The notes below the pieces were generated by a model, which worked only from the letters and a program-made list of their open reading frames with translations, searched no databases and was not told the DNA's origin. A stretch of DNA of 64,000 bases, taken from the NCBI GenBank assembly GCA_001938485.1, contig MQRK01217150.1, positions 1-64,000 of the forward strand, given 5' to 3'. This DNA comes from Girardia tigrina (taxonomy: Eukaryota). A program made the position numbers and the translations under genes. Numbering within the stretch: the stretch's first letter is position 1; each line of letters begins with the position of its first letter. Below are positions 1,159 to 56,552 of this stretch, in pieces.

Positions 1159-3873
1159 TCGACCATTGAAGGAAATAGCAGTACTCTGGTTGATTCACAG
1201 CATACACTGCATCCATCAAACACAAATACTAAAAGCATTTTTGCTGAAGTGATCAAGTTGTTGCATACAAAAAAGACACAGTTCAATCAACAACAATTGC
1301 AAGCAAGACAACAAAAATTACAAGCAAAACAATCACAAGCACTACATAAACAACATGCATAACACACACAACATGAGCAACACATAACAAACACGCAAAA
1401 ACATCAACAACAAACCACAAACGACCAACAACATCAGGCAAACATACATGACAATTCGAACCCAAATCAGTATACAATGACTTAATTTGTCAAGAAAAGT
1501 CATCCAAATTATCAAAAATATGTTGAGGAAAAAGAAAATAGTGATGGGAAACATGAAGAGATTATCACTTCAGATCACTTTGAGGCCTTTTTCAATGCTA
1601 ACTTGAATGCAAACAACTAGCATTGGAAATGACAGATATATTCAGGGAAAAGTTTATCAGTATGAAAGGAGATAACAAAGATGTAATCAGAATAATCGAG
1701 ACGACGAAAAGCAGATTATCCACTCTTCTCAACAAGGTATCCTTTATCATCGCCAAGGAGCAATCCAATGGAAAATCTATGGCAACTTCCAGAACGAAGA
1801 GAGCTGAAAGATGAAGAGATAGAGAAAGAAATGAAGAGGAAAGTATTGGATAATGGGAGCGTGTTTATGTCAAGGGTTTTTAAACAATTCCGGGTGAGTG
1901 GAATGGAGAACTCAGCGGAATCGATAACTACCGTGGCATTTGAAGAACTGTGTCACCAGCTGAGGTGGTCAATGGAAGCACTTGTGAGCAATGAGTATGA
2001 TCGCAAGTGCATTCAAGAGTTCGCCAATGAAGTGAGAACAGAATTCTTCAAGAAGAAAAGAAAATTGATTGGGAAGAACAATGAGAAAAGAGAAGCCAAA
2101 AGAGATGTGTGCCAAGCTTTTGGAGAACTGACTGAGAAATGTAAGACATTGAAATATCGATCCAACTTGATTGACACAGTCGTGGATCCAGCTGCAGCCC
2201 GACATCTCCTACCAATGGATATACGAAATGTGCTTGTTGAAGAATTAAAAAAAAGATGGAAAGGAGGAGTGTTTGGGGGGGGGTATTACCACCCCAAATG
2301 GAGGTCACTATAACGCAACTAGTGAAAGATGCTGAAAGTGAATTTGGAAAAAAATTCCTCCATAAGCAAGGAGAGAATACAGATGAGAGGGAAGTAAAAG
2401 ATCTCGAAGGAATGAGAATCGATGATACCGAAATAACAACCCCTGTAAATACACCAATTTTGAAAGAACGGTTGTTGCAATCAGAGAAGAAAATTCATAT
2501 CTCCCGTTCGGTAGATGCAATCAGAAAACGCAACACTATTACAGGGGAAGTGGAAAAGAAGAGAACAGTTGAAATTGTAACCACGGATGAATCCACTTCA
2601 GCCGTGGAACAATACAACAAGGAAACGAAAAATAGAAATGGAGAAGAGGATGACAAAATTGAGACGGAGCAACTATCGTATGAAAGCACATTAGATGCTG
2701 ATGTTAATTCGAACAATGCAGAAACAATTATGGAAACTGATGATTCCATAATTGTAGCTGTTGAACAGAATGAGAATGAAGGTGGTGTAGTGAGAGAGAA
2801 AAGTATAGAAGGATTGGCAGAACCGAGAATACGAGAAGAATCACCAATGTGATGTCCAACTCCATTGAGAAGAAGTAAGAAATTGGAGTCACCTCCCCCC
2901 CCACAACCGGATATATCGTGCAACCAGGATAATATGTACAACATTCACATTGCAATTATGTAGAAATTGGAGGATGAGAGTGTTTATATGAACCTGGTCG
3001 AGTTGCTGACAGATCGTGTATTCTGCAGGGGCGGCAACCGCGCTCAATTTTGAAAGGCGATAATGGATGAACTAGCGGGAAGATAGGGTGCTTCGATGTG
3101 GGCTGAAGGGATCCCAGATGTCCTATGATATGGAGATCAAATATTACCAACTTGCATCGGAGGAAAGAAGACAAAGAGTTTCAGAAGTGATTAACTCTAC
3201 TCAGAGGTCATCACAAATGGAACCGTTGTTTGGAACAATTGAGGTGAGTGATGAATCAGATTCAGGTGAAGAAAAATCTGGAGATGATTCATTTAGAAAT
3301 GCAGAAATAGAAGAATGCACAATTCCGGTTTCATTCGGTCGGAGAATACCACGACCCGTTCTCGATTGTATGAAGTCTCCAGTTGTGACTCCAGTCACAA
3401 CTGAAGAAAGCCCGGAGGAGCAGAAGAAAGTTTATATACCGAAAGCACTGACAAGGGTTGTGGATGAGACAGTACCAGATACTGTTTCACCAAGGTTGGT
3501 GATATTGATAAACAGCATACTACGACCAACACCACCACCAATCAGTGCACCGAGAAGAGTCACAACGGCAGTGACAACCAAAACCGATGCTACTCCGGTA
3601 GCACCGGCAATGGTTTTAAAGAAGAAATGGGGACCGGCCTGCAAAACAATTCACAAGCCCGTGGTTGAGAAAAAGGCGGCTCCAGTGAAGAAAGTTGAGA
3701 TGGTAGACGAAGTTGATGAGTAGGGGTTTGTGCTTGTAGCCAAAGCTGGCAAGAAGGCTAAAGCTCCTTCTCCGGAAGAAAAGAAATGCACCAAATGACG
3801 GGATGGGCCCATCCCATCAACAGAAACAGGGATGGAATGCCAACCCTCACTTGTGGATGAATAAATCGAAATA

Positions 3874-4370
3874 TTGAAGGTGCAGGTTCCTGACAAAACA
3901 GCACCAGTAAACTCAATGTGGTTCACTAGTGAGCACATTGACTTTTACTTCAGGAACCATGCGGGATTGACAAGCGAAGGATATGTGAGCCCAGTGGACT
4001 GTAACGCAATGTTGAACAGCAGAACACGAGTGAAACGATTCATAGGTTTTGAGAAAGAGGATGTGAATGAGTGTAACTTTTTGTTCTGTCCGTTTAACGT
4101 TCGGAACGCTCATTGGGTTCTGTATGGAGTTCTAGTCGAAAAAGGAGTTGCCTTTCTCTTTGATCCGCTGAAGGAAAGTGGATTGAAGAGGGAGTCGGTG
4201 GCGATGGGAATGACACTTCATAGGATCGTCAACAAACATCCTGTTCGATGGTCTCTTGGAGTTTGACAGTGAGTGTGTTCCAGATTTTTATCAAACGAAT
4301 GACCACGATTGTGGTCCTTTTGTCTGTATATATGCTGCCGGGTTGGTGGAGGACAGTTTGGATGAGACTC
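3874..4370 (+). pseudogene. Ulp1/C48-family cysteine protease domain 1 (catalytic residues present)
   Basis: WFTSEHIDFYF ... FCPFNVRNAHWVL ... FLFDPL ... QTNDHDCGPFVC gives the H, D, Q and C of the Ulp1 fold. One frameshift near 4256. Confidence 0.85.
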
Positions 4371-4479
4371 CAGCCGTTGCAGTCGAACAGATTAGGGAAT
4401 TTGTAGAACTGATGCCGGGAAATGAGAGTGCTCCAAAGCTAATTGGAGGGGGTCCAACACCCCTGGACAATTCATTGCA

Positions 4480-4920
4480 GGAGTATCTCTCATTTACGGA
4501 AGATCACTTCTCGGTATTTATCAGTTCTTACACAGTAAGTCACTGACATCTGACGGTGAAGCCGATTGTAGCAACGTCAATCAGCAAAGGCAATGCTTCT
4601 TTCCTTAGAAAACAGGTTACCATGGACATTTTTGATGGAAAGGAGTGTATTTATCTGCCTGTGCTGATTGATAGTAGGTGATGGGTTTTGTTTATGGCAG
4701 ACTTGAAACACTATGATTTCTCAGTGTTAGATCCCACTGCAGATATTATTGATAAAAGTCTGTTGCAAAGAATGAGAGTGACTGCTCGATACATCGAACA
4801 CTTGTGTCTCACAAAAAGAGAAATGAGAATAAATGTATTTGTGCAGCCACATCAGCTGGTGCAGAATGGAGGACAGACGGGGCTGATGGTGTGTGGATAC
4901 ATTCGAGCTCTGATAGAAGA
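4480..4920 (+). pseudogene. Second Ulp1-like domain, catalytically degenerate
   Basis: IYLPVLIDSR*WVLFMADL...SVLDPT...QLVQNGGQTGLMVCGYI parallels domain 1, but the His position is a stop and the DCG motif reads QTG. Confidence 0.65.
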
Positions 4921-5399
4921 GCGGCCGCTTTTTGATATCAATATTGAGAAACTTAAGAAGCGGATCGCGAAACAACTCATCAAAGCAAAGAAGAAGGGTC
5001 CCACATCAACAGTGAAGCAGAGGAAGAACCACACCACTCTCAATGCAACTCATGCAGCGAGAGTGGAAAATTCATTGACCTTTGCTGAGGTCCGATCATC
5101 AACAGTGGACCCCGATATACTTGAGAGAGATATAACTAATTATATCTACTCTCACAGGCCCATTAAACGGAGAAATATGTATATGGGCAGCAAAGTTGTC
5201 GAGTCCACTAACCAGGATCCCAGATTAAGAAAATTGTATCGGGTTCAACCAAAGAAAGCAGTTTAAATAATACTAAACAACACAGTTGCTGACACTACTC
5301 CATCGACAGAAGCAATCATAGAGCACTTTAGCGTAAAATCTGTTGCCCCCCCTATTAGTGATTTGGGGGATTTTCTCTTAGTTAAGAGAGGTGATTTAT

Positions 5400-6620
5400 T
5401 CGAACTCAGGGAGGTTCTCTCTGGTGAAGTGGTATAGGCGCTGAACAAGGCCAACAATTCATCCCCGGGTTACTCAAATATTACATATAAGGATATGTTA
5501 TATTGTGACTCGGTGGGTGCAATATATACAAAATTATATAATAGGATAATCAATAGCCGAGTGATCCCGGAAAGTTGGAAGGAATTCTTTACAACACTCC
5601 TTCCAAAACCGGGAAAGCAAGGCCAGTATGATCAAGTCTCATCAAGGAGACCGATAGCTCTCTTAGAGTGTGCCTATAAAATATTGGCAACACTTCTAAA
5701 ATATCAATTAAATAGGTGGGTAGTGGACAACAAACTCTTGCACCCATTGCAGAAAAGTCCTGGACCGCATGGTGGTTGTGCTGAACACAAGTTTCTCATT
5801 AGGGCGATCCTAGACAAGTACTATTCTCAGCTGGTGGAAGCTGAGTTCCACGTAACAATGCTGGACAATGCTGATGCATTTGACTCAGTGTCGGTGAAAA
5901 TCATCCTAAAGCTGCTGGGAAGAATGGGTGTAGGAGCCGACTGTGACGGGTCAGATCCCGATTTTAGTGGGGGTGCGACAGGGTTGTTCACTCTCAATGC
6001 TGTTATTTAATATCGCCATAAACCCGGTCTTGCTGGAGCTAGATCAACAATCTTATGGCGGTATGATAATAGCTAATCACCATGTGAGTTGTTTAGCTTC
6101 TGCTGATGACCTTGTGCTGCTGGCAGACAATCAGAGTCACATGCAGTTAATGATGGATAAAGCTGCAGAACTTACAAACATTATAGGGATAAAATTCAGA
6201 CCTTCCAAATGTGCACGGATAGCGATCTCACACAATCCAAATAATAGGATCCAGATATATGGTAGCGCTATCCCGGAAATCACCGAAGGTGAATTCGTTG
6301 TATATTTGGGAGTTCACTTTTCGGAGAACATAAGAATAGCACCAGTTGAGAAGCTTGCAGAAGTTACAAGAGAAACAGTAAAGATTACAGAATACGTGCT
6401 GTTTCTTTGTCAGAAACTGCAAGCCTACATGATTTACCTGCACTCCAAGCTCATATTTGCCTTCAGGATCTTCTATATTCTATATGGAACTATTGATGGC
6501 AAGAGCTTTAGTCCGGACAATGTAATCAGACTATTGCATAAGAAGGTGTTGGGACTGCAAAAGAATGCATCAAATGCGTATCTCTACACTCCAAGAGAAA
6601 ATGGGGGGTCGGTATCAAAT
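5400..6620 (+). pseudogene. Non-LTR reverse transcriptase domain
   Basis: Motifs PGYSNITY, WKEFFTTLLPK, RRPIALLECAYK, GGCAEH, LDNADAFDSV, GVRQGCSLSMLLFN, LASADDLVL, FRPSKC, YLGV, with frameshifts. Confidence 0.92.
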
Positions 6621-7246
6621 CGTTACTTGATGAGTACTTGATACAGTCGCTGGCCCACAGTTTCCAAATGATTGCGTGTAATGATATGACAACGATGGAT
6701 GCTGCAGTCTTCTCCCTTCAGCATGGAGCTACAGGTCCCAGAAAAACGCGTCTCTTGTCGATTGAGGCGGCAATACGCTGGCTGAACGCTGGGACACAAT
6801 CGGGGAAAATCAAAAATTGGTGGGCGAAAATCAAGTTCGCCATTCATAAGATTGTGAATCTGCACCAGATTTCAGTAAGTCTGGTGCAGAATAAACGGGG
6901 TATTTGTCTACATCTCCACCAGTCATTGGTGTGGGAGAGAAGACTGTCAAATGGCGAGACTGAGGTACTTAAGGACGAAACAAGCGAAAATATGTTTCTC
7001 ACCCCCCTCCTAAAGTCCAGTGTGTTCAAGACACTAAGAAGATTGGTGGAGAAATCTTGGACACACAAATGGAATATACAAAGCAGCTCTGGACGGATTG
7101 CAAGAAGCTTGCAATCCACAATCACCTTTCACTGCGCTGTTTATGGGGGGAAGTTGAATTATAGCGAGTGGTATTTTTACCACAAGGCAATGACCTACAC
7201 AGTGCCTATTAACTACCGACAGGGTATTACTAAGAACAAGGGACAC

Positions 7247-7780
7247 TGTCGTAGGTGCCCTCATAATAAAGAAACCTTGGCCCATGTACTTACAGGATGT
7301 ATGTACAGTGAAGGGTTCTGGAACTATAAACAAAACTCGGTCCTTTATTGTATAGGGGAGCAAATAACTGAATATTTAGACTGCAAAGTCGATATAAATG
7401 TTTAGCGTAGATATGCTCCATCTACACTCCGGGTTGATCTTCAGGTATTCGTCCCATGATCGCAGATCTTATACCTAATAGATGTCAAGTGTCGGTATGA
7501 CACGAAGAAGAACATGGAGAATAGAAACCAAATGATCCTCGATCATTACGAGATTCTTGTTGTTTTTTGCAGGGCAGCAATGCTAGAGACGATTGTGACA
7601 GTGCTCGCCCTTCAGGTAGGGTGCCTAGGGACGTGGTCGAAAAGGAGCATTGTCATACTGACAACTCTAAAGATCCCGCCAAAGGTGATAAGACAGATTG
7701 CAATTGGCTGCTCAGTATCGAATATGAAATACTCAGCAGCACAATGGTCTTATCACCGTTATGGCATAGTCCCAAGCGGG
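7247..7780 (+). pseudogene. CCHC zinc finger plus restriction-like endonuclease (RLE)
   Basis: CRRCPHNKETLAHVLTGC, then LRVDLQVF...LYLIDVKCRYD and VGCLGTW, typical of R2-group RLE domains. Confidence 0.85.
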
Positions 7781-8284
7781 ATCCAGAGAATAAATAAGAT
7801 TACTGTAGAAGAGATCCAAGAACCTGATGAAGGCATGTTAGCGATGGAAGAGATGAAATATGAACATGCTATTCCTGAGGGTGTATAAGAATTTGATCCA
7901 GCCGCCCTGGAAGCACTAGTACAATCTTATAGTTACAGAGTAGGAGTGCAACAGGGGGGAGTAGTATGTATTGAGGATCAAACAGATAATGATCCATCTG
8001 ACGATGAGCTAGTCTCCAATCTAGATAGGATGAGGATCGGAGATTCATCAGAGGATGAAGAAAACTCATCATCGGAGAAGACTTGACCTTCGATGATGAG
8101 TTATTAAGGATGCAGTGAGTGAATGTGTCGGGCTTGGCGGAAACGTTCACCCAAGTGATGGGTGCGGGGGTAGGCCGCTAATGAAAAAACCACTGTGGAA
8201 ACCAGGGCCGGTGTAAAGGACGCCTTCGGGACGATACATGCGGCAAATTTATTTATGTACCAACCGGGCACTTTTACTCAATGA

Positions 8285-8545
8285 CAAAAAAGAAGGCAGA
8301 AAAATAAAGATATTCAAAGATTATTTCTAGCAATTGAAGTTCCAGGAAAAGGCACAATTAATACTGCTAAAGTGTGAACAATTAAAGTAAAAACTTTAAG
8401 ACAAAAAGTCAAAGAAATGTTTAAAATTGAAGGAACAATACTCTTATTGCTTTTGGATTTAGAATTACAAGATAAAAATTACCTATATGGTTATGGATGT
8501 TATGAAAAAGAAATTAATAATATAACAGTTTATTATATTGAGGAA
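8285..8545 (+). pseudogene. Putative ubiquitin-like (beta-grasp) domain upstream of env
   Basis: Frame of ORF 8417 extended upstream through one TGA: RLFLAIEVPGKGTINTAKV*TIKVKTLRQKVKEMFKIEGTILLLLLDLELQDKNYLYGYGCYEKEINNITVY. By eye it aligns to ubiquitin (TIENVKAKIQDKEGI...LIFAGKQLEDGRTLSDYNI). Confidence 0.5.
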
Positions 8546-8778
8546 TTTTACGATATTAATGATTTTAACGAATTTACTGATGATTTACAAAAAGTTGAAA
8601 TAAAAAAGGAAGAAAATATGTTGCAGTATCAAAACATTCCCGATGTAGATATAAATGTTAATTTAATAAGTACAAGTATGTCAAAAGAAGCAAAATGTTT
8701 CGAAATAAAGTAATAAAAAATGAATCGTTGAAAGATAACAAATTTGATGAGGGTAAACAATCTAAATATAATTCGAGA

Positions 8779-11300
8779 ATGTTGTGGTTATCATTAATTA
8801 TGATTTTATTCTTATGTATATCTCCAACGATGTCTTTAGTAGCGTATGATTGTTCACAAACAGAAGTTGGAAAAATATATTCATGGATGTCGTAGAATGT
8901 ACTGAATTACAAATTAAAGAAGAGAAAAATGTTTTTTATCATTTATATCAAGAATCAGGATTTAGAAGAGCAAAATGGCGAGAGTGTATAGTCAAACGTG
9001 CAACTTATGTTTTTCATTGTGGAAAATCGAGTCACTCTTCTCTTATTAAAATAGATGTTATACCAAGACCAGTTAATATCTTACCAGAAAATTGTGAAGC
9101 AGCATTTCAAACGAAACAACTAAAAATTGATTCCACTTTAACTTTAACTGCCAAAGTTGGATATATTACGAGAGAATCTGTATTTGGAAAAGGAGTAATG
9201 TATCAGGATGGAGAATGTAAAAGAGAATCTGTAAAATTGGGGAATAAAATAGTAGATAAAATCATGGTATCAGAGGAATATCAAACAGAATTGGGAGAAT
9301 TTGATGGAATTTTTGATTATGTTACGGGGAAATTACAGTCCCATGCATTTTGTAATTATCGAACTACAAGCTGTCAAACAGGAGAATCTGTATTATTAGA
9401 CTCAGTTAATTATAAAGAATGTAATTTGGCATTTCTTAAATCAGCAGAATTTATTGAAGCTCAAGGCATTCAAATACAAAAAAGACCAGATATATTAAAA
9501 CCGAAGAAGCATCAAGCTCGAAAAGCAGTACCAGTTCAAAAAAAAGAATTTAGCAACAGTTTTAATGTCATCTCTTTCAGCAGATGGAATGAGATTTATA
9601 AGAAAAGAAAAAGAAAACCGTTGTGGAAAATCAATGTATTCAACAAATTACAAGGGTCTATATGTTTCTCAAGAAAGGATACCCGATGCTACAGTTGTAC
9701 ATAATGCTGATATAAAATTATCCCATTATTTGAGCAATAAAATAGATTTTGCATTTCATTTTCATCAATCAACAGTGGAAAATTTATATCGTGAGGTTAT
9801 ATTAAATGATTGTAATTTGAACCGAGAAATATTACAAAATCGAATCGCTTTAGTAGTAACAAATTCTAATCTAGTCGCTCCAATATTAGTCGCTGAAAAA
9901 GGTGTATTTGGACGAATTATGGGCGAAGTTATGAATGTAAAGAAATATCAGTTCAAATAATAAAACATAATGAAACAAATGAACTTCCAGTTAGTTATAA
10001 AGGTGAACTAAGATTTGTAGAACCTATAACACGAATTCTAGTGGAAAATGGAACAAGACCTAGAAAATTATGATGTAATGAGATAACAGCACCTTTATAT
10101 GATGTAAATTATATCGATTAACACAAGAAATCTGGATTTCGTTACCAAATAATAAAGAAGTTAAAGGCATCAAAAAATTGCATTTAACAAACTTAGAATA
10201 TTTAATAAATTTTACGTCTTTAGATCAAATGTCAACAATTTGTATTTATGTTGGGTTTTAAAAATCTTTAATTTTAAATATTTACTTTTTTAAACACAAA
10301 TCTTTATTCTTTAATAGTAAGTCTTTAATCTGTAAATCTGACTCAAATTAATCAGAAAGGACTTCCAACATAAATATATAGACAATGAACACAAATTCTT
10401 TTTTGAAACTTTAATTCAAATAACAAAAATTAACAAGTCAAAAATAATAATAATAATTCAATTCTTGATGACAGAACACAAACACAAAACAATATTTCGT
10501 ACGAGTTAACAGATTACAGTAAAAACTGTGAATCTCCAAAACGAACGAATGTTAAAATTTAAATTAAACCTTTTCCTCCCATACGCGATACTTATGGTTT
10601 AAAAGAAGAATATTTTAAAAAAGAATAATAAATAATAAAAATAATTCTATATAATGAGTTAAGTTGCTTCCTTTTGTTTTTGATGAGAGAATTTTTTGGG
10701 CAAACTAAACTAAATTTGCTGCTGTTTATATAGTAATTTTCATTAGCCTTGAAAATTGATAAAATAAAACAAAGACTAAAATATTTTTAATTTTAGATTC
10801 CAAATTTTGTTAAACTAAATATTATTTTGTTTGAAATTAGTAATTTTACCAAAAGAATTATTTAAAAAATTTTTCTACATAAAATTTTATCAAAAGTGTT
10901 CAAATGTATTTTTCGAAACCCTAACATTTATTCACCAGAAGAAATTGAAGATTCAAGACGAAATTTCTTATTTCCTTCTAAAAAAGAAAGAGTAATGAAT
11001 GAAATCATCAATACCGTTTTACCTTATGGAGTAGGAAAAGTAAACTTCGATATTTTTTTGAATATAGACCATTGCCAAAGAGCCACTATGAATGCGATGA
11101 AAAGAATATGGGGAAAATTTATATTTTTTGGTCAAGCTTGTGCTGGTTTAATTGGAGTTTATAGAATTTTTACGATATCCAAAGTTTTTATTTCTCAAAT
11201 TTTATCAACATACAGATTATATACAATTTTGGGATTTTCATGGAAATTAATAATTGGATGTATTCCTATGATAGCAAAATTTTTCAAAATTTCATCATAA
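8779..11300 (+). pseudogene. env: Envelope glycoprotein of chuvirus-like / class III (gB-like) type, frameshifted and split by a solo LTR
   Basis: Signal peptide MLWLSLIMILFLCISPTMS followed by LVAYDC; ECIVKRATYVFHCGKSSH; Cys-rich ectodomain; NKIDFAFH; IYSPEEI...FLFP is restored when the insert is removed; membrane region WGKFIFFGQACAGLIGV...LYTILGFSWKLIIG. Confidence 0.8.
10249..10926. mobile_element. Solo LTR inserted in env
   Basis: TGTTGGG...CCCTAACA termini with a 4-bp TSD TTTA (10245-10248 and 10927-10930). Removing it restores the frame MSTICIYSPEEIED. Confidence 0.85.
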
Positions 11301-11699
11301 AGAAATAAATACATGAAAATCAGAAATGAAAATTAATAAACGTCGTAAAAAGTTTAAGAAAGGAAATAAAAAAGTACAAGTGTAACAAGTGATGGAAGAA
11401 AAAGTGAAACTGGAAATGAACCTGTAAGTAATAGTAATTTAACGGCACCAACAATACCTAAAAGCGAGTGGAAAGATTATGAAATTATTACAAAAAAAAT
11501 TACAAATGATAAAGAATCAAGAAATGTTAAATTCAAGTGCACCACGCAATCTGACAAGTTTAGAACCATTACCGAATTACTATCCATTCTTACAACTTAA
11601 GGAAATGAAATATATCGATCCAAAACTGGAAAATTTAAATTCATAGGAAAAACAAAAAATAGAAGTTGAAATAAGAAATCAATGGGGTTTACCAAGTAA

Positions 11700-12161
11700 T
11701 TATGTTTTTGCTGTGAGAATTAAATTCGGTAAAAGATTAACAATAACTGTTTTATTAAATGATAGATATATTACAGCTTTAGTTGATACTGGTTCAGAAG
11801 TCACGATTGTTGATGAGAAGATGCTTCTGGCATCTGAAAAATTAAATCTGGCACCTTGTATTGAAAGATTATAATCAATTACAGGTCAGCGATTGAAGGA
11901 ACTGTTCAAATGTCAATAAAAATTGGTGGCAAGAATATTATAACAAACGTACTAATTTCAAAAAGTTGCCCAGAATCATTATTGCTTGGTATGGATGTTT
12001 TGCAACAGTTAGAAGGTGTTTCTTTAGATTTAAAAAGTGGAAACTTGGTATCTATACCTGATGGAAAAATCTTACATAAAGAGACTAAATCAATTACAAG
12101 AGATCATGTCTATCAATCAACACCAAGAGATCATAATCACTACATTTACTTATTAATTTAG
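11700..12161 (+). pseudogene. Retropepsin-like aspartic protease downstream of env
   Basis: ITALVDTGSEVTIV (DTG at 11785-11793) and LLLGMDVLQQL. One stop and one frameshift; no RT follows. Confidence 0.85.
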
Positions 12162-12604
12162 ATTTCGAAAATAGAACAAAACAGGTTCAAACTATTGTTC
12201 GGTCTAAAACATTTAATTGGGATTCAGTATCGATTGCATATTTTGTGATCAAGAGTCAGTCGGATTGCTTGCGTCGATTGTGCCAGTTCGAACCTAAAGG
12301 AATCCAAATGAACTTGATTATTGTGGTGTAGATCGTGAGATAACAATTGATGTTTTGTATATATTTACATTCATTTATTTATTGATGCACTTTTATCTTA
12401 ATAACATTACGAACATCTTATAAGACATTGTGATTTTAAACTTTTTTTGTGGGTGTGTGAGGGTGTGAAAAGTTCCAAACGAGCGATATTTATTTGTGAT
12501 GGTAAAGTCAACTCTTCATTGATTAAAGAATAATATAAAAATTTAATAATAAAATAAAATATTCAAAAAATTAAAAAACGCCATTTGTTAAATTTATTTT
12601 TTAC

Positions 12605-12645
12605 GACAATTAATTTCGACGGTATAACCGTCATCGTCAGGTCTC
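12605..12645 (-). ncRNA. Minimal type I hammerhead ribozyme of the Penelope-like element
   Basis: Minus strand GAGAC-CTGACGA-T-GACGG(TTATA)CCGTC-GAAA-TTAATT-GTC: CUGANGA and GAAA core, a 5-bp stem II, palindromic AATTAATT stem III, and GAC/GTC stem I. Confidence 0.75.
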
Positions 12646-13158
12646 AAGAAAGAAATGAATTTTGAATCTGCTTATATAGACAAGCAGTGATTATGTCATC
12701 AATGAATTATTATGTCATCTAAACACGCTTAATAGGGTTTTCAAGAGACCCATTTGCACATTAATCTTAGGATCTAAAGATCTGATATAAAGTGCTTCAC
12801 AGGCCACCCTCTCCCAATAGTTTTAAAACGAGAGCACAGAATTTTAAAATCATTTAAAATTTTCATTCAACTTACAACCCTTTCTGTGTTCTGCAATATT
12901 ACTCCCACCTACATTCCGACCATGTTCTTGGATTCTCTTACAAAGATGACGGGACGTCTCTCCAATGTATGTGGCATTACANNNNNNNNNNNNNNNNNNN
13001 NNNNNNNNNNNNNNNNNNNNNNNNNNNNNNNNNNNAGATTTATTACAAAACACATTTTGGATTTTATATGTTTGTGATATTATTTTTAAATTAAAGGCAT
13101 TATTTACGCATTTTAAAATTGAACGTTTAAATTGACCAAATCCCTCTGAATATGGGCC

Positions 13159-13291
13159 TAAAACATATTTTAAAGTTGTTGAGTCTTCTTTATCATTTAT
13201 AATTGGTTTATTATTATAATAAACCGATTATTATTATAATAAACCGATTATAAATGATAAAGAAGACTCAACAACTTTAAAATATGTTTTA
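13159..13291. repeat. Near-perfect inverted repeat (foldback), arms ~55 bp
   Basis: TAAAACATATTTTAAAGTTGTTGAGTCTTCTTTATCATTTATAAT... and its reverse complement ending at 13291. Confidence 0.9.
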
Positions 13292-13849
13292 AGCATTTGT
13301 TACGATGCCAACTCGAAGAGACAGTATTAGTATGTGAATTCGAAAATGACTCATTACCCTTCCTCAATACCGATATACATATTTTGAGCTCACTATTAAT
13401 GATAATTTCTTAATGCTTACAATTTTTATTAGATTGCCTAAATGTTTTTCAAAGTGTTGCGTAACAAATTACTGAATCCCCCCACTCCAATGTCACAAAT
13501 CGCCAGAAATATAATAATTTATAATTATTACCACCCCTAGCGTTACGCATTAAATGAAGAGCCCATAAACAGTAAAATTGTTTTGTCGGCGGAAGAAAAT
13601 CCTTAATGGTTTCTTTAAAAAAATTTATTTGGTTCATTTGTGATTGTCATGTATGGTTTGGCACTCTGTTACACTATTGGTTTTTGTTTTCTAGGATGAA
13701 AATGTTCTGACTAAATCAGTAAATGTCAAACGTTACCAAACAATAATTACTGATTATAATCGATCTTATGCTCATTTATTTACACACCGTCTTAATTTTG
13801 ATATAAAGATATTCAATGGACATCAAACTGAACTTAACGAATATCGTTT

Positions 13850-25659: not shown

Positions 25660-28600
25660 ATGGTGGCCTTTGCCACAAATTCAGACCAATTAATCACCAG
25701 ATTGATTCCGGAGCATTTTAAACGCGATGACGATGTCGAAGTATTGATTACGAGTTAAAATAGATATGTTAAAGCAGCAGGAGTACCAGATATTTAAAAA
25801 AGACATTGGTGGTGACTGCCTTTGCTGGAGTTAATCCCGGTATACGAAAACACGAGATCTTCAGAAAGAGGTTTCGAGAACAGGTTACGAGAAGCGTTTC
25901 AAAAGAAAAGATCCCAAATGGATGTTCAAAGAGAAGCCGTTGAATTTCAAAGAACAACGGAGACGACAGCAGAATTTTTTGCTAAAGCAAAGAAGATGGC
26001 TGAGGCGATAGTATCATTCCAATGGACATTCGAGGAAGTGGAAAAATGCCTGTTACTAAATTGTAATAACGATAACGATAACGAAACAAAGAAAGAAATG
26101 AAATTGAGGGATATCCAAGATAAAGTCGAGATAAAGAAAATTATTAAAAAGATGGATGAAGTCAAGTCAGAAATAAAACAGGTCGATGCCATAAGACCAT
26201 CTTATGCCAGCGTTGCACAGCGTAACAGGCTAGTAAAAAGTAGAGTTCTCATGAGAAATGGACCGAATAGAGAACAGAAAACTTGCTGGAATTGTAATGA
26301 AGTAGGCCACGTAAGAGCCAAATGCCAGCAGAAGCGCGAAGTGACAAGTTTCGGATGCGGTCAAAAAGGACGCATTAGACGCGAATGTCATGTACAATGT
26401 AAAAGATATCAAAGACCAAGTCATAGAGCGGATGTATGTTATACAAAAAGTCGATATAACATCTACAGGTATAAAAATCATGAAAAATCGTATGGAGTAA
26501 TATGGGGACAAAGACAGTTTCCACGAAATGACAGGCAACCAAGAACGGACGGAAGATCAAAGCAGTATTTGAATGACTACAGCAGAGGCATAACGAGAGG
26601 ACCAGAACTGGCTGCACTGGAAAAGCAACACAAAAATTGTTTGGAAAGAAACGAAGAGAACGAAGTCGATGGGGAACCGATTTTGGCGATGGAGAAAGTT
26701 TTGTGAATCTTAAACCGAATCGTTTAAGTAGTATGTATGATTATTATAGTAAAAGTGTGTATAAAAGTATTAATTATATAAAAGATAACAAAAACATAAA
26801 AATAAATCATAAACTAATAAAAAATTTAAATAATGCAATTATGAAAGAAAAGAAACAAGTAGCAGTAAATAGAGAGGTAGGTACAGAGGATGAAAATGAA
26901 AAAGACGAAAAAGGATCGATGAAGAGTAAATTCAGGGAGGAAAGTATTTACGAAAACCTTCATCTAACGGAGAAAACAGTACGACGGATGAAGAGTTCAT
27001 CAGTAGAGACACAAACAGGTGATGTAAAGATTATTATGGCGTTGGAAGATAAACAGGGGAAGATTTCCTATGACAAACTTCAGGGACGTCCCAGCATAAC
27101 AGTAATTATAGAGAAAGAAGAAATCGAATGTTTGCTTGATACAGGAGCTGCTATGAATGTGATAACAGAAGAACTAGCAAGAAATTTCAAGACAGCAACG
27201 ACAAACAGCACTAATCAAAGATCCACAGCAGCAAACGGCGCACAGATGAATGTCGTGGGAGAGTTGAAAGTTATATGTAGGGTAGGACAGACTAAAAAAT
27301 ATAAAATTTGTAACGGTAGAACAACTAAGACCTTAAATGATAGGAAGTGTACCTTTAAAGTAGTGTTTCGGTATAGGACTTCGTTGGCTAACGGCAATAG
27401 AAAGAGAAAAGGATGAGTTTCATAGAATACACCTAATTTATGAACTAGAAGCAAAATTTGGCGATAAAATAACAGATGACCAGAGACTAAATTAAGCAAC
27501 GAAACATATGTATATAAGCAAGGAATTAAAAGAGTTAATCATAAAATTCACGAAAATACTCGTGGTAAATGACTGGGACATCGGTAGAACAAATCTAAGA
27601 AAACATGAAACCAAAACGACAGGTAAACCGATAAATATTAAACCACGAAGACAACCAGAACAAGACAAGTTAAGTTAGACGAAGCCATCGTGAATTTGGA
27701 AGAAAATGAAATAATTCGACATTGCAATTCACCGTGGAACACACCACTGGTATGTGTGTGAAAAAAGCATACTAATTCAATAAGACTATGTATGGATTTC
27801 AGACAACTGAATCAAATCTCAGAAAGACAAGCCTTCCCGACGCCAAATATGGAAGAACTAATGGAAAAACTACACTACAAAATATTTCAGCACATTTGAT
27901 CTAGGCAATGCATATTATCAGGTATAATTACAAAAGGAATCGCAAGAAAAAACAGCATTCTCTACAAAAAGTGGTCAATTTTTGTTTCCTAGAATGCAGT
28001 TTGGTATAGCTTCAGCGCCAGGGACGTTTCAGGAGTTGATGACGAAAGTATTACAACCAATTAAAAAAGGAACGTCAGTATATTTATATGATATATTGAT
28101 AGGCTAGGGTACGGCCCGTACCCTGCCCGTGCCATTAAATCAATTGAAGGATTCCAGAGACCGAACTGCATGAAGAATTTGAGAAGTTTTCTGGGAATCT
28201 GTAACTACTATAGGCGATTCATAAATAATTACTCCAAAAAAACCAGGGCGTTAGAAGGGTTATGCGGATCGAATAAAGAGAAACTAGTATGGACGGACTC
28301 GTGTGATCTAGCTTTTAACGATATGAAGAAATCCCTCATAACAGCCCCAATTTCAGCATTCCCGAATTTCAATAAAAATATTATTTTGGATACGGATGCC
28401 AGTTTTGATAGCATAGAAGCAGTATTGTCACAAGTTGGCGAATCGGGAGGAGAACATGTAATCGCCTATGTCTCGCATTCGATGGGAAGTCATGAAAAAG
28501 GATATTGTATAACTAGGAAAGAACTTTTGGCCATTTATTATTTCTGTCAACATTTCAATCATTATTTATATTTGAAAAAAGATTTAAACTAAGGACAGAT

Positions 28601-29100
28601 CATAAAACCATCACTTTTATTTTACATACAAAAAAGCCAATAACAGCCCAGTTCCACACATGGATCAATTATCTCAGTAGTTTGGATATAGAGATGGTAT
28701 ACAGAAAAGGGGAATTGCATGGAAATGCAGATATGCTGTCTCGAAGCAAATGTGACACATGTATCCAGTGTCAAATGCAACATGAAGACGCAAAATCAGA
28801 CAGACTTAAAACGAGATTATTAGCGGTTTCGACAAGAAACCAGGCAAAAGAAGCATACAGAAAGAGAAAAGAAGTGAATTAATTACACAGACACACAGGC
28901 TGTTATGTCACGCAGAAGCGGAAAAGGTTTACCATTATTTAAGTGATTAATTTGATATGGAAGAGGAACGCAAAACAGTTAAAGAAGTAGTAGGAACATG
29001 TAAAGAATGTCAAAAAAACAAAAACAGATATGTCGAAGACTAAAGAAGAGACAATCAAGATAATATCATCTGAACCGTTTGATAAAGTATATATCGAAGA
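25660..29100 (+). mobile_element. Ty3/Gypsy gag-pol, decayed, truncated in integrase
   Basis: Gag knuckle CWNCNEVGHVRAKC; protease LLDTGA; RT SPWNTP, DFRQLN, FDLGNAYYQ; RNase H DTDAS, RKELLAI; start of the integrase zinc finger. Confidence 0.9.
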
Positions 29101-31300: not shown

Positions 31301-31759
31301 AAGATCTAATTATAAGATTCATTAAGATTTTTTCCTTTTAAATTGAGATTTTTTATTTTAAAAGGACTTTTTTCATATAAAAATGAGAATGTTTCATTTT
31401 CTTTAATTTTATAATTTTAGGACATTGAAAATCTGAATTTTAATTGAAAAAATTCATTTTAAAATAAAAAAATCTCAATTTAAAATGAAAAACAACATAA
31501 TTCTACATACAGAAACGTACATAACATTTAAAATATTATTTATTATATTATTTATTAAATAACCGGCGACTGATTTTCCGGCGACTAATTTCTGGCCGCT
31601 CAAATTATAATTTTCATCAAACAGCTTCATAGTGTCGTAGTGAATTTAAACACAAAAAAAGAAATGTTTTTGTAATATAATCAAATGGTATAACTAATTT
31701 TCACTCACAATCAACAGACACAAAATCAATTCAACAAAGTTTAATATAATTTAAAAAGA

Positions 31760-34095
31760 GACTGAAATAACTAAGAACAACGATTATTTGCACAGGTGTT
31801 GCACAACTGATGGGAATGTTCTTTATAAACAAAAACGTGACATCCATCATATCTGGTAGAACAGTTTTTGCATTCACCAATATGGGCATTGAGCATTCAA
31901 GACACAAACCTCTCTTTCTATCATCATGAGGGTTCAACAAAGAAGGAATGGAAACTAATTTTGATAAAGAATGGTGCACCTGACCTCGTTCTATATGTGG
32001 ATGTAGTAATGCGTTTCCTAGTTCCAAGAGGTAAAGACTACGACGATGTAATTTCCGATTGTTCCACTCTGGATCATAAATAGAATGATTAACAAATCCG
32101 TTGTGTGCGCTCAAATAAAGTATGTTGCAAAAAAATGGTACATGCCTGAGGACACATTTGAATTTGACTGAGTATATACCCAAGCGTTTATCAACCGCGT
32201 CGACCGCACCCTTGGTGTTGTTATAATATAATACAACATCAGGTTTCTTATTTTCAGTCCTGTTGTCTATAACTGTCATTTTGTGAGTCGTTGATAGAAT
32301 GTTGACAACTCTATCTTTTTTGCCATATATGAAACGAGTAGTGTGTTACAATCATATGTTTGGTTTACTGCTTGGATCGTTGAGTACAGCTCTCGTTTTC
32401 GGTGGAAAGCAAGTACATTTGGCAGTTCCTGGCGGTTTTTTTTGCTACCATGGTCATATTTCTATCAAAAAGCTTCTTAGCCAGACTTAATGACGTAAAA
32501 AAACGTCACACATGACATTTCGTCCACTCTATCTGAGATGTTTAGTCAATGTCAGCACAACATGCTCACCAAGAGGTACACTAGTGTCACGATCGTTATA
32601 TTTTCCACAGAAGAACTGAATATTACTATGAGGGGTTATTTAAATTTGCATCTCGCCAAAATAGTTTATTATTTTTTTTAATTTCAAAGTTAAAATATTT
32701 TGATGTTAATATGCTTATTAAATATTTTAAAATTAAAAATGATATAATAAAGCAACTATAAAAAATAAAAATAAAATATTATTTAAATAAAAATATTATT
32801 TATTTAAAAATAAAATATGTTTTTAATGTGTTTTTTAAATATTTAAAAAATTAAAAATGATATAATAAAAGAAAATCATAAAATTAAAAACGTATTTAAA
32901 AATAAAAAAATGTTTTTAATGTATTTATTAAATATCTTAAAATTAAAAAAAATAATAAAATTATTTATAAATAAAACTATTTTTACAGTCATATTAATTT
33001 ATATATTTTAATAGAAGTTATGAAACAATTTTAAATAAATTTTAACATAAATTTTTAGTTTTAATGTGAAAATTATTTAATAAATTTTCAAGATTTTAAA
33101 AATTGAATCGAAAAGAAGTTAATAGATTTATTTGTGGCGAGATTATTAAATTAACAGACAAATTTGTTTAAATATCTGAATTGTTGTTATATTAATAACT
33201 TGCAGTGTTAAATTATGAGTTCTGAATTTGATAAAAATGAAAGTGGCATAAACAATACTTACAATTACAACAGTAGTAGTTGTCAGAATCATATGCTAGC
33301 CAAAATTTAAGACCATATTTAGCGGGTTTTCAAGGCATGTGTTGACGATAGCGACAGCGCCCTAATAGGGATATAACTGCTCATCAACTCTTATGGAAGC
33401 CTTCGGCACGTAGGCTATTTGACTGTGATCAACAAAGCTGTAGAGCAATAAACAAACAGCTGCCAGTTTGTCTCGAGCTAGACGTAACTGACTAGTGTCC
33501 ACATTGTCAAACCTGAAAATGCCCCAAATAAGTTTGAATCAGTTTACACTCATTGTTTTGGAAAAGATAGGTCGGCCATGGAGATGAGACCATAGGTCAT
33601 CAGTACGCTCTCCAGATGATCTATAAACACCATGAAGCAACAACAACTCTAAAAATGCATTCATTTCAATAACATCCACCGGCTTGTAATTTTCACCAAA
33701 CATTTTCCGGCCTTGTCGATTCGTCTCCATCATTGTGGTTTCGATCATGTCATTGCTGAAGAAAATGAAAAAAAACTATGTAAAACGGGATCTTCTCTAG
33801 TTTGTTGGTAAGCATATAATGTCAAGCCAGGTGCTGGATATAAAATATTTTGTCGCATGGATCTGCCTGTTGTTGTCAAATTTCATTCGATTACTTCCCA
33901 TTTTGTACCATTTCTGCCAAAATAAACACCTTCAAATGAATCTTTCTCACGTTTCACTTCACTTCCACTGTCACTTTCTTTTATGCTTTCAAATTCATAT
34001 TCATCTGCATCAATCATATGTTCGTCAAAAACGTCTTCATGAATATCATAAATTACTGACAAGTCTGATTCATGCTCGTAGTCACTATCTTCGTC
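31760..34095 (-). pseudogene. piggyBac (PGBD4-like) transposase, decayed
   Basis: Acidic N-terminus; EMNAFLELLLLHGVYRS...DLWS...RPIFSKTMS; VDEQL; KPAKYGLKFWLA; KKPDVVLYYNNTKGAVDAVD; C-terminal Cys-rich remnant. Confidence 0.9.
32629..33272. mobile_element. Solo-LTR-like insertion (TGAGGGG family) in piggyBac
   Basis: TG...CA bounded AT-rich block separating DNYY from SNIQFFCGK. Its start matches 1-111. No clean TSD seen. Confidence 0.65.
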
Positions 34096-36471: not shown

Positions 36472-37755
36472 TTAGGTGTACAAGTATGAAATGCGGATTT
36501 CAGAAAACGGATTGTGCACAATGCAAAAAGTAGGTCAATAGTTACGCAATGATGTCATAATATTGAGTAATTATGTAGTGTCTCATACGTAACTCATAAA
36601 TTGATAAAGCGTTTTAATAATTGTTGTATTTCTGTGTTTAAGATGTCCAAATTTATACCAAGCAGGGAGCATTCGCGGACGGTACTAATTTTTTGTTACC
36701 ATCTAAAGAAAACTGCTGCTGAATCATACCGATTACTCCAAGAAGCTTATGGTGAATATGCCCCATCGCAAGATACATGTGAACGATGGTTTCGGCGCTT
36801 CCATGGTGGTGACTTTGATGTTGCAGATAAGGACTATTGGAAACCACGAAAAGGTTTCGAAGATGTGGAATTGCAAGCTTTGTTGGACGAAGATGTTTCG
36901 CAAACACAAAACCAACTGGCAGAGCAATTAAGTGTAACTCAACAAGCTGTTAGCAATCGCCTCAGGCAGATTGGAAAGATTCATAAGATCGGCCGATGGG
37001 TACCATATCAATTAAACGATAGGCAGATGGAGAGTCGCAAAACCACTTGTGAAATCTTGCTTGCACGATACAAAAAGAAGTCATTTTTCCATCGCATCGT
37101 TACTGGGGACGAAAAGTGAATTTATTTTGATAATCCTAAACGAAAAAGATCATGGGTAGCCCCGGGTACGCCATCCACATCGACAGCCAGACCAAATCGC
37201 TTTGGCAGAAAGACAATGCTCTGCGTTTGGTGGGACCAGAAGGATGTAATTTATTATGAACTATTAAAACCCGGTGAAACGGTGAATACTAAACGTTACA
37301 AACAACAGTCGGTCGATTTAAACCGTTCGCTGCTTCAAAAAAGACCTGAATACCTCAAAAGGCAACACAAGGTTATTCTTCTCCATGACAACGCTTCGTC
37401 ACATACATCAAAACCGGTTCGCGCCATGTCGGAGGAAATGAATTGGGAAGTTTTACCTCATGCGGCTTATTTACCAGACTTGGCTCCTTCAGATTACCAT
37501 TTGTTTGCACGATGGGTCACGCATTTGCTCAGCAGCGCTTTGATTCTTACGAAAATGTGCAAAAATGGGTCGATGAATGGTTCATGGAAAAAATGGAAGA
37601 CTTTTACTGGCGAGGTATCCACAATTTGAGATATAGATGGGACAAATGTATCATTAGTAATGGAGCATATTTTGAATAAAGCTTTTTTTATCGTTCTTTT
37701 GTTTTAACGTATTTCTTTTCAAAATTTAATCCGCATTTCATACTTGTACACCTAA
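36472..37755 (+). mobile_element. Full-length mariner, mauritiana (Mos1-like) subfamily, 1284 bp
   Basis: Perfect 28-bp TIRs TTAGGTGTACAAGTATGAAATGCGGATT with TA on both sides. Transposase MSKFIPSREHSRTVLIFCYHLKKTAAES, WVPYQL, TGDEK*, HDNA, YLPDLAPSDYHLF. One stop and one frameshift. Confidence 0.95.
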
Positions 37756-39230: not shown

Positions 39231-39263
39231 TTGAAATGAATACTGAGGTACATTTTTAACAAA

Positions 39264-39701
39264 ATGCTGCGTAATATCAAATACAAAGGATTTACTGAAG
39301 AATGCCTAAAAGACCTCCATTTTGGTACTAAACCGTGTCAATGTGTTTTACCCTTTCCGGAGTACACCATCATATTCTTCCGCAATGGAAAATGTCGAAT
39401 AATGGGATGTAAACAACGAATTGATCCATCCACTTTATCATTCAATATCACCAATGTCAGTATACAATCTATTACAGTGACGTGTGATTATGGTGAGCCT
39501 ATAAATAGCAATGCTTTGAAAAAGACTACTCCGAATCATTATGAACCTGAAATGTTTCCTTTTTTGAGATTTGCTTGTTTCAATCCAATATGTGTAAATG
39601 TTTTTGGTTCTGGGAAAATTTTAATCACCGGTTTGAGAGATTTAAACTATAATGATTTTGTTACACGTCTTTTTGACTATATTTTGTTTACAACTATGTA
39701 A
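39264..39701 (+). CDS. Minimal divergent TATA-binding-protein-like protein, 145 aa, intronless
   Basis: Repeat 1: NIKYKG...TIIFFRNGKCRIMG. Repeat 2: IQSITVTCD...YEPEMFPFLRF...VNVFGSGKILITG, compared with TBP IQNMVGSCD...YEPELFPGLIY...LIFVSGKVVLTG. Confidence 0.85.
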   Translation: MLRNIKYKGFTEECLKDLHFGTKPCQCVLPFPEYTIIFFRNGKCRIMGCKQRIDPSTLSFNITNVSIQSITVTCDYGEPINSNALKKTTPNHYEPEMFPFLRFACFNPICVNVFGSGKILITGLRDLNYNDFVTRLFDYILFTTM

Positions 39702-39749
39702 GTTATGTTTCAAATATATTGTTGTATCTTCATTCAAAATCTTGTGTAT

Positions 39750-40742
39750 ATTAAGCTTTAACTCATTAAGCTTTTGAAGAGTCACTTTTGAAATATGAGA
39801 TCTAGCGTTATGATGAAGAAGGATGGGACTTTTTCGATTGACCAAACCCGGAGAAAGGGTTTTCAATTTCTTATGCATTTCATCAATTTCATGACAGTAC
39901 CTCTCCGCTGTGATTGTCTCACCTGGATTCAAGAAACTATAGTGGATGATTCCAGCATCACACCACCAAACTGTCACCATAACCTTACGGGGTGTTAGAT
40001 TCGGTTTGGGGAAGTGCTTCGGTACTTCATCTTTGTTCAACCAATGTGCAGATCGATGTCGGTTATCATACAGGATCCATTTCTCATCACAGGTAACAAT
40101 ACGATCAAGAAATGGATCGTTTTTATTGCGAAGATGATTGACAGAACAAATTTATAGCGTCGGTTCTTTTGATTTTCATTCAAATCATGTGGAACCCATT
40201 TATCAAGTTTCTTGATTTTTCCAAGTTGTTTTAAATGATACAGGACTGTTGAATGACTAATGCCAAACCCATCTGCAAGTTCTCTGATTGTTGTACGGGG
40301 ATCTGTTTCCACCATTATCCTCAAATTGTCGTTGTTCACAACAACTGGACGACCACGACCTTCTTCATCTTCAAGGTTTTCATCTCCATCAAAAAATTTT
40401 CGGAACCATCGTTGCACTGTGCGCTCAGAAGCTGTTCCCTTGCCAAACGCTTTATTGATATTGCGAGCCGTTTTTGCTGCTTTACGACCCAGTTTAAATT
40501 GGTACAAGAAAATTGCTCGAATTTTCATTTTTTCCATTATTAATTTAGCACCGTAAACATTCTAAAATATAACAGCAATATGTTAATAATGGCTATAGGA
40601 ATATACAGCTATGCATAAGATTTCAAATAATATTTAACACTAATGCATTTAAACTTATATACATATCAAAGTAGATAAACAAAGTATAAAGCTCAAAANN
40701 NNNNNNNNNNNAAAAACCGCCATTATTTTTCGACCAACCTAA
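39750..40742 (-). mobile_element. Mariner, cecropia (Hsmar1-like) subfamily, 3' truncated
   Basis: IRAIFLYQFKLGRKAAKTARNIN, WVPHDL, TCDEKWILYDN, LLHHNARSH. Left TIR TA|TTAGGTTGGTCGAAAAA. Confidence 0.92.
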
Positions 40743-44689: not shown

Positions 44690-46007
44690 TAAAAAATTAG
44701 AATTCGCTTTATTTATAAAATAATGTTAGCATCATTTAACAGTGCTGGTATAAATTTTCAAAATATTTTACCTCATTTGTTAGTTAGAAGATGAATTTGA
44801 TTAATTGATTAGTTAAGAAATTTGTTTTGATTTTCATATTCAGAATTTTTATTCTTAAAAATTCATTTCATATTCTTAAATATTCATTTGAACCAGTAAT
44901 TTTCCGCTTAATAAAATAAAAAATTCCAAGTTGAAATTCACATTTTTTGCGTTATTCCGCTTAAAAATTCCCCGCATCTGACACCCGAAAAATTCAATAT
45001 ATAACTAATCGCCATTGCCGGAAGACTGCATTAAATCCACTTATTTGAAATTCCAGTTGCATCGTCACTAATAAAAACTTCTTACTCTTTATTTTGTTCC
45101 TCTGTTGGGACGACAGTTTGGGCACTTCTTTTGTATCTTCTTCATTGCTGCTGTCTTCCAATGATGACGATTCTTCTTTAGTCACAGTTCCTTTACTTGC
45201 GACTGAATTAGTAGCTTGTTTCATTTTCTTGTCGTCTTCCTCGTCTGAACTTCTTCTGTTAATAGAATTTTTGGATTTGCCATACCCATAAAGTAGACAC
45301 TTAATTCGAATTATCTATCTGTCATTTCAAATGTACTATACCAACATGTCGCTTGATCAATAATTGTTTCTTTTCCCTCAGGTATTTTCCAAATTATATC
45401 TTTTTTTGGGAATTAGGAAAAATAGTTTTTTTTCTTATAGAAAGCATTGCAGGTCTTCTTATGTTCAATATAATCTTAGATTCAAATTTTATATTACATA
45501 GCTTTAGAGGAATAGTATTTTTGATTTCTCAATTATTTTAATTGTTATACAGATACTTTAAAATTTTTCATGGTTTAAATTAATTAATTTCTTCTTAATA
45601 ATATAAATTAAAAAAATTATTTAATTATTATTTGGATTACTTTTCATGTAACATATCTGTAAAACAGACAATAAATATTTTTCATAACCGTTTTTATTCG
45701 AATACTTTAAAAATTAAATATTATTTAATATGTATAATAATACTAAACCTATAAAATAAAACATGAAATTTAAATTTCTAGCCCTTCAAGAAAATATACA
45801 GAAAAATTTATTTCCTACGAAATACGCACCAATGGGGATAGTTTGCTTAATTACAGACGAGACCAATAGAAATGAATTAATCGGCTATTTTAACGGGGCG
45901 CAATATCTTGATTATTATTTCGTAACTGGAATCTTTAATTATAGTACGTTATCTTAATATGTTATTAAAAATTAATTCAACTTTTAATTTTAGAAATCTG
46001 TAGAAGA

Positions 46008-50010: not shown

Positions 50011-50414
50011 AACTCCGCACAAATAAACAATTTACCAAATCCAAAATCTAATAATTAGACTAGAAACTAGTAAACAAAAGAAATTTTTTTAATCCACTCT
50101 ACTTGGCCAACAGAATTTTTTTTGTAATCTTTTGTAGAAGGAAAATTAATATTAAATTTTTTAATCAATTTATTTTGTTATTAGTAATAATTAAAATCTT
50201 TTGTAGAACGGACAATTTCATACAAAAAAATTACAACTCAATTTTTCAATTAAATAGTTAATAATAACAATAAATTTATTATAAAGCATGGAAGGAAAAA
50301 AACCAAAACATTATACTGTATTAAATATACTGTATTAAATAGAAAACGTTTTTTTGAAAAAATTATTTTGAGCTACTAGTTTGATCAAATTTTCACATTA
50401 TCATTTATTGTCAT

Positions 50415-56428: not shown

Positions 56429-56552
56429 GTCATCAAGAGTGAGAAATTTTTCAAAGTTCGGAGAAAATTGATTGAGGAAAAAGCCTTCAAAAATAGTTTT
56501 CTAAATTCCATGGATACAAACAAACACACACACACACATATATATATATATA

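Follow-up and report, generated by a model that had tools for sequence, protein, structure and literature searches.

Nematodes, bryozoans and flatworms have been reported to contain elements with a GAG-ENV-POL order and an envelope (env) of the glycoprotein B (gB) type (Chary and Hayashi, eLife 2026, PMC13524379), and the giant planarian long terminal repeat (LTR) retrotransposons Burro/GYPSM1 are described as having one open reading frame (ORF) with a CCHC-knuckle gag, a Ubi2/SUMO-like domain, an env with kinship to the fusion proteins of mononegaviruses, placed in frame between gag and pol, and a dUTPase-like domain between protease (PR) and reverse transcriptase (RT) (Arkhipova and Yushenova 2019, PMC6431247). 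The stretch of Girardia tigrina DNA analysed here, 64,000 nucleotides of contig MQRK01217150.1 (hereafter the window), holds at 8283-12563 what is very probably a decayed member of a pol-deleted subfamily within a gag-env-pol Ty3/gypsy family. The subfamily likely spread with RT and integrase (IN) borrowed from complete relatives while encoding capsid, envelope and protease. The nematode endogenous retroviruses (NERV) attributed to Sacco et al. 2022 reportedly also place env before pol, in a continuous gag-env-pro-pol ORF; they form a nematode clade, unlike the planarian window family.

With the errantiviruses whose ENV is of the HSV/gB type (HSV, herpes simplex virus), the window family has in common a Ty3/gypsy pol, a gB-type env between gag and pol, and multiple copies (PMC13524379), and over one stretch of 61 residues the env of Smed_errantivirus_1, given in the supplement of that survey, agrees with that of the window at 43 positions (hand count). 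The main text of the survey makes no mention of ubiquitin, fibronectin, exonuclease, frameshift, non-autonomous or in-frame, and a pol-less subfamily would not appear in it, as the survey retains intact elements only. The Burro features listed above are likewise common to the window family, in which the Burro-type domain set (Ubi/SUMO-like, env, PR, dUTPase-like, RT, RNase H (RH), IN) is found as a single frame. Burro ORF1, however, spans 4873-5140 aa and carries MATH, BIR, ankyrin and BCL2 cargo, whereas the window family encodes ~3200 aa without such Pfam matches and has two modules of a helical part plus a ubiquitin-like domain (UBL), unlike Burro as described (PMC6431247). The gag-env-pol layout with a ubiquitin-like domain is already known (PMC6431247, PMC13524379). 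The sequence-only reading of this locus had suggested a possibly undescribed lineage; since the main layout is known, the finding as first noted is ordinary.

Three-frame translation gives a single decayed plus-strand coding region from 8285 to ~12330. That reading had recognized the same co-linear region and, within it, a UBL-like segment, a signal peptide, a chuvirus-type fusion glycoprotein, a membrane region with a charged tail, and a protease with DTG and LGMD motifs, all of which are present (Table 1): the UBL segment gives a profile match to host ubiquitin above all shuffles, a hydrophobic signal precedes the ectodomain, three separate pieces match PF24664 (Monjiviricetes_fusion) in profile order, the membrane region is followed by a basic and Ser-rich tail, and both protease motifs are found, though in two frames. 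The suspected interruption at 10249-10930 is real and consists of an antisense solo LTR with its target-site duplication (TSD). Two boundaries had been misplaced: the frame end at 12161 is a product of decay in the window copy, the family's homologous stop being 12329-12331, and position 12458, taken for the polypurine tract (PPT) and start of the 3' LTR, lies in the 3' untranslated region. At its 5' end the copy adjoins the end of a non-LTR element; its homology to a copy with both LTRs stops ~130 nt before the genuine purine tract and 3' LTR, and no further part of the element was found elsewhere within the 64-kb window. After insertion, the window copy would have been hit by its own family (now the solo LTR), would have lost its 5' half beside the non-LTR element, and would then have decayed.

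Table 1. Features of the element remnant in the window (TM, transmembrane segment; E, E-value).
Feature	Positions	Strand	Basis or remark
Element remnant, pol-deleted gag-env-pol Ty3/gypsy (very probable)	8283..12563	+	without 5' LTR, gag, first UBL, PPT and 3' LTR
UBL2, second ubiquitin-like domain, broken by stops, no C-terminal diglycine	8285..8521	+	81% to sister-copy UBL2
env internal signal peptide (predicted)	8776..8841	+	sister-copy hydropathy peak 2.34; 86% match
Fusion glycoprotein ectodomain, 5' part, several frame changes	8842..10248	+	PF24664, E 1.4e-12 and 3.5e-13
4-bp TSD, left copy	10245..10248	.	sequence; sister copies show site uninterrupted
Solo LTR of same family, antisense, TG...CA ends	10249..10926	-	91.5%/90.0% to C210766 5'/3' LTRs
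4-bp TSD, right copy	10927..10930	.	sequence
Ectodomain, 3' part	10931..11135	+	PF24664, E 2.3e-19 over 10866-11297
Membrane region, two hydrophobic peaks	11136..11300	+	sister-copy peaks 2.05 and 2.01; 88% match
Tail, basic then Ser-rich, env-to-protease linker, predicted cytosolic	11301..11724	+	in frame with TM in 10/17 and with PR in 15/19 copies
Retropepsin, family's single pol protease, broken in window	11725..12081	+	DTG 11785, LGMD 11985; sister-copy Pfam; tree
Pol-deletion junction and polyprotein C-terminal remnant, last membrane segment missing	12082..12331	+	homology to end of pol-bearing copies
3' untranslated region, ends before PPT and LTR	12332..12563	+	homology to two-LTR copy

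A DNA search of the genome returned 77 matches with 90-92% identity over env (40 scored of 7026 candidates); the flanks of 20 copies were retrieved, and the openness of junctions between domains (no stop, no gap) was scored across 21 copies. A whole copy of the window's pol-deleted type lies on contig C210766, to which the window is 91% (8283-10249) and 88% (10926-12563) identical. It has two LTRs of ~680 bp that are 95.1% alike and end in TG...CA, a 4-bp TSD, a purine tract before the 3' LTR and, 10 nt past the 5' LTR, a TGG-led run that resembles a primer binding site (PBS). Gag lies between LTR and UBL (Retrotrans_gag, E 6e-5; zf-CCHC, E 1e-10, three knuckles), and the Pfam matches on sister copies follow the order gag, zf-CCHC, PF24664, RVP, RVT_1, RNase H, H2C2, rve, with the gypsy-type pol order PR-RT-RH-IN. 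Judged by its LTR, TSD, PBS-like run, PPT and pol domain content, the element is a Ty3/gypsy (Metaviridae) LTR retrotransposon and not a Pao element. The mosquito BEL/Pao element Anakin (PMC7642597) does carry a chuvirus-related glycoprotein within an LTR element, as the window family does, is described as a chuvirus-env capture, and has a BEL/Pao backbone where the window family is Ty3/gypsy by domain content. Although the glycoprotein family is the same (PF24664), the window family has gypsy-type RT_RNaseH, Integrase_H2C2 and retrotrans_gag and no BEL-type Pfam domain, and its env precedes pol; a BEL/Pao element of the Anakin type with a captured chuvirus glycoprotein is extremely improbable here.

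Complete relatives in the genome have a coding region of ~9.6 kb (~3200 aa) that begins with gag, two helical-plus-UBL modules, signal peptide, fusion glycoprotein, membrane region and tail, and continues with one protease, a dUTPase-like domain (labelled by position; no Pfam match), RT, RNase H, integrase, a second signal/TM, FN3-like repeats and a last TM; a separate exonuclease ORF follows the polyprotein. Each junction tested from gag to the FN3-like repeats is open in at least two copies: UBL1-UBL2 in 5/12, PR-dUTPase-like in 5/11, dUTPase-like-RT in 6/10, RH-IN in 3/8, IN-second TM in 5/8 and TM-FN3-like in 6/9, with the TM-tail and tail-PR counts given in Table 1 and the knuckle-linker junction judged from natural ORFs. 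The FN3-like-exonuclease junction is open in 0/4 copies. The direct knuckle-linker count, likewise 0/4, was distorted by overlapping intervals and is disregarded. Contigs from 4 of 11 listed RNA runs (shares 0.10-0.20) cover the family and join across the solo LTR, which is not proof of transcription; no splice-like joint was seen in the contigs covering the family.

The protease bears on a further claim of the sequence-only reading, namely that the window holds the 3'-terminal env module of a gag-pol-env element and that this module has a second protease dedicated to it. In the window copy RT is indeed absent behind the protease, env and protease do share a frame in an enveloped LTR element (tail-PR junction open in 15/19 copies), and 9 of 10 distant relatives have an extra env-proximal protease with its catalytic motif intact. 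The complete copies nevertheless refute this arrangement. Gag rather than pol lies upstream of the UBL, the real order being gag-UBL-env-PR-RT, and behind the same protease RT is present in 24 of 40 scored contigs (protease-to-RT search, both ends present; hand count), which is the outcome that had been named beforehand as deciding against a dedicated protease. Among family copies there is no second protease in the tail and none near gag, and a tree of 31 protease domains places the three sequences of the family with RT-proximal proteases (89/88). The RT upstream in the window (5438-6641), considered as pol of the env element, was rejected, as it is part of a non-LTR element with Ulp1-type C48 protease matches and zf-RVT. 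We give a dedicated second protease in this family practically no credence: the protease is the family's ordinary and only one, and it looks terminal in the window because the subfamily lost its copying enzymes. Its N-terminal half matches RVP at E 1e-3 in the window, while one natural frame of a sister copy gives RVP at E 1.6e-7 and then RVT_1 at E 3.4e-25, and another, of 833 residues, runs from the signal peptide through env into the protease.

More distant public relatives present a different picture, and for them an env-adjacent protease does stand. The search gave 10 proteins of 1582-3865 aa (among 2245 candidates), with RT 62-67% identical to that of the window family; three of them combine gag, env and pol in a single protein of 3761-3865 aa free of stops, and in seven env occurs with RT and IN. 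Nine of the ten (P0002-P0010) contain 2-4 retropepsin domains with D[TS]G motifs, located after the env TM, before RT and, in six of the seven integrase-bearing proteins, again after IN, where the retropepsin precedes a second signal/TM-bounded ectodomain. Pairwise identities hinted that the window protease might be orthologous to the env-proximal proteases of these relatives; the tree did not, and the candidate was rejected. P0011 is labelled at source as a protein of a bacterial metagenome-assembled genome, yet is a retroelement polyprotein; the label likely reflects contamination.

The defining feature of the window's subfamily is the loss of pol. Identity to pol-bearing copies ends at 12081, and this deletion junction is carried end to end by 33 of 40 scored places, including the window (945 candidates). 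Past the junction, 12150-12412 is ~76% identical to the end of the complete polyprotein and 92% identical among deleted copies, with the last TM missing. The protease of the deleted subfamily is joined in frame to the polyprotein's last stretch, and in 14 of 34 deleted copies the frame continues 104 residues past the protease to one common stop. Intact RT and IN in the same element occur in the parent family and not in the window's subfamily. Variants common to at least three deleted copies fall on codon positions 1/2/3 in the ratio 18/8/32, whereas singletons are spread evenly at 110/102/96 (Fisher p 8e-4; the comparison uses 19 deleted copies, with 15 deleted and 3 pol-bearing ones left out as short), a bias that suggests selection specific to the deleted subfamily.

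From the gene order and frames, a route of expression can be proposed in which translation would yield a single polyprotein threaded through the membrane. Its gag and UBL parts would remain in the cytosol, signal peptidase would free env into the lumen of the endoplasmic reticulum, and the TM would bring the chain back to the cytosol. There the protease would release itself and pol from the env tail and would also process gag to maturity; the env tail would be trimmed as a by-product, which might or might not activate fusion. Copies of the deleted form would depend on RT and IN supplied in trans. The gene order, frames, deletion and amplification are observed; the processing and topology we infer.

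Several observations weigh against a selected, pol-deleted form expressed in this way. Deleted and pol-bearing copies are intermixed in the tree, and because of this the third-position bias may be partly inherited or recombined in; variants private to deleted copies (8/5/13) show a weaker bias (chi-square p 0.15; Fisher p 0.02 versus singletons). The support for the protease clade is below the tool's strong threshold, the UBL2-signal junction is open in only 2/13 copies and the RT-RH junction in 2/11, the RT-RH frame changes, mostly at differing sites, include one site common to 4/11 copies, and no copy examined is open end to end. The two hydrophobic peaks of the membrane region leave more than one topology possible, and the element is read from its DNA, with no processing, particles or trans-mobilisation observed.

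The intermixed trees and the weak bias of the private variants, together with the fact that chance alone makes one third of deletions in-frame, favour the alternative that the pol-less form is a passenger RNA, which kept its packaging signals and whose open frame is a leftover without selected protein function. This is a possibility of some substance that we nonetheless doubt, as the frame is held across the junction to the counterpart of the natural stop in 14/34 copies, and the 92% versus 76% identity past the junction means that the deleted form either has a long history or derives from a diverged partner, and in either case kept its frame. Frame changes recur at A-rich sites, both ahead of the signal peptide and in the RT-RH interval, which could instead mean that env and pol are separate products, made by way of a programmed frameshift, by readthrough or by splicing; one ORF would also mean equal amounts of Gag, Env and Pol, which is unusual for retroelements. 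At the RT-RH site, however, 7/11 copies have no shift, relatives have stop-free single proteins, and Burro is described as a single ORF (PMC6431247), and we judge separate expression improbable. A pol-deleted form that likely spread with borrowed enzymes, and that would be translated as a single polyprotein, is the reading that we retain.

The env ectodomain lies between signal peptide and TM and has 14 cysteines (hydropathy and Pfam on sister copies), with sister-copy env matching PF24664 at E 3e-79. A PDB sequence search with env gave no fusogen match, only centrin noise, and the putative class III assignment rests on the close Smed relative in the survey (PMC13524379). No furin-like site was found in the 833-residue natural frame.

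For the UBLs, a profile of 11 natural homologous stretches scores 19.1 bits against host ubiquitin, compared with 8.2 for the best of 1000 shuffles, and hhalign gives a probability of 82% (E 1e-5); the Atlas score of 0.80-0.82 is a lead only. The window UBL has no Pfam match, and phmmer with the UBL region against 1.84 billion representatives gave 0 matches. Neither UBL is followed by a C-terminal diglycine in the copies read, which makes the UBLs unlikely as deubiquitinase cut sites; that they serve in binding, together with a helical module like the TFIIS N-terminal domain (TND), is a guess. Two structure models of the UBL region have predicted confidence (pLDDT) <50 across the UBL parts. 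The single-sequence model (pLDDT 43) gave nothing in Foldseek at E 0.001, and the second is usable only in its helical half, as its alignment was misaligned over the UBL half. The helical module before each UBL (L009:1296-1520, just upstream of the retained window part) folds at pLDDT ~90, and its top structure matches include LW/TFIIS N-terminal domains (Z 10.8, root-mean-square deviation 2.6, 79 aligned) as well as Elongin A, MED26, IWS1 and the LEDGF IBD; a helical-bundle match with Z <13 counts as a lead only. A link to Ddi1-like proteins, which join a UBL and a retropepsin, was rejected, the two domains being >1000 residues apart and the UBL having its own published precedent. In a ubiquitin search of the genome, 150 of 150 scored places were near-perfect ubiquitin, many within long frames, and some stretches (L039, L082, L094) were fused to gag-like sequence or lay antisense inside LTR-element sequence.

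Two proteins of the complete copies lie behind integrase. One is an FN3-like membrane protein that is fused to integrase (contig C225110, L028:2675-3433 minus, and sister copies); it matches Pfam fn3 at E 1e-4, below the curated cutoff (Atlas 0.94, 179 shared features, low recognition). Against the post-integrase proteins of the 10 relatives the FN3-like piece had no significant match (best iE 0.36), so that homology to them is not shown. The exonuclease ORF (RNase_T, DEDD; L028:964-1941 minus, E 7e-9) is matched in 4 pol-bearing copies, and DEDDy ORFs are known in rotifer LTR elements (PMC5408684). A second, divergent gag-env-pol family (L023:1-6492 minus, contig C194919) carries a single helical-UBL module, with a BCL2-like stretch (E 0.008) ahead of env, and is fused inside its RT-RH region to a 3' part of the window's family.

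Plant TR-GAG elements are LTR-flanked and non-autonomous, keep gag, are devoid of RT and IN, and are amplified in trans; the window subfamily additionally keeps env and protease in one frame. An amplified pol-less subfamily with gag, env and protease in frame would be the enveloped counterpart of such non-autonomous LTR elements. Herpesvirus class III fusogens need an attachment partner, and the second membrane protein behind integrase is a candidate for a fusogen partner on which the cited surveys, as far as their texts go, are silent. The 2-4 catalytically intact retropepsins per polyprotein in the relatives point to how such a polyprotein may be cut. It is conceivable, though we hold it only tentatively and think it rather unlikely in full, that these gag-env-pol elements are two-glycoprotein viruses in one membrane-threaded polyprotein, in which a fusogen of the gB type precedes pol and a receptor-binding FN3-like protein follows integrase, that the relatives have in each cytosolic loop a retropepsin of its own that would cut the chain at that point, and that the window subfamily is a selected helper-dependent form supplying capsid, fusogen and protease and neither the copying enzymes nor the attachment protein. 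In the literature searches made, an env-keeping pol-less subfamily was not found (the matches listed were mostly plant elements), nor, among the matches listed, an FN3-like membrane protein behind integrase, nor 2-4 proteases in one retroelement polyprotein, all of which figure supplements or Repbase entries may already record.

Elsewhere in the window, the decayed non-LTR element at 1650-8282 (plus strand), which we take to be NeSL/Utopia-like, has Ulp1-type C48 protease, RT and zf-RVT matches, and its 3' end adjoins the env element. A gag-like minus-strand ORF (305-1072) was considered as the gag of the env element and rejected, having no tblastn match to any copy; the gag-like ORF at 305-1194 minus is unrelated, with two zinc knuckles and no pol behind it. 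Further decayed elements lie at 12570-13300, 25816-28879, 31734-32345, 36571-37626, 39645-40561, 40981-43340, 50400-56430 and 59299-64000, and comprise a GIY-YIG-like fragment, piggyBac-like and mariner transposases, and several gypsy elements without env, in one of which two direct repeats lie 5.7 kb apart. Among transposon fragments there is also a short, intronless TBP-like ORF (39240-39698 plus; PF00352, E 4e-13), and an intronless SKI/SKOR-like host gene is found at 45969-47150 on the plus strand (Ski_Sno, E 7e-36).

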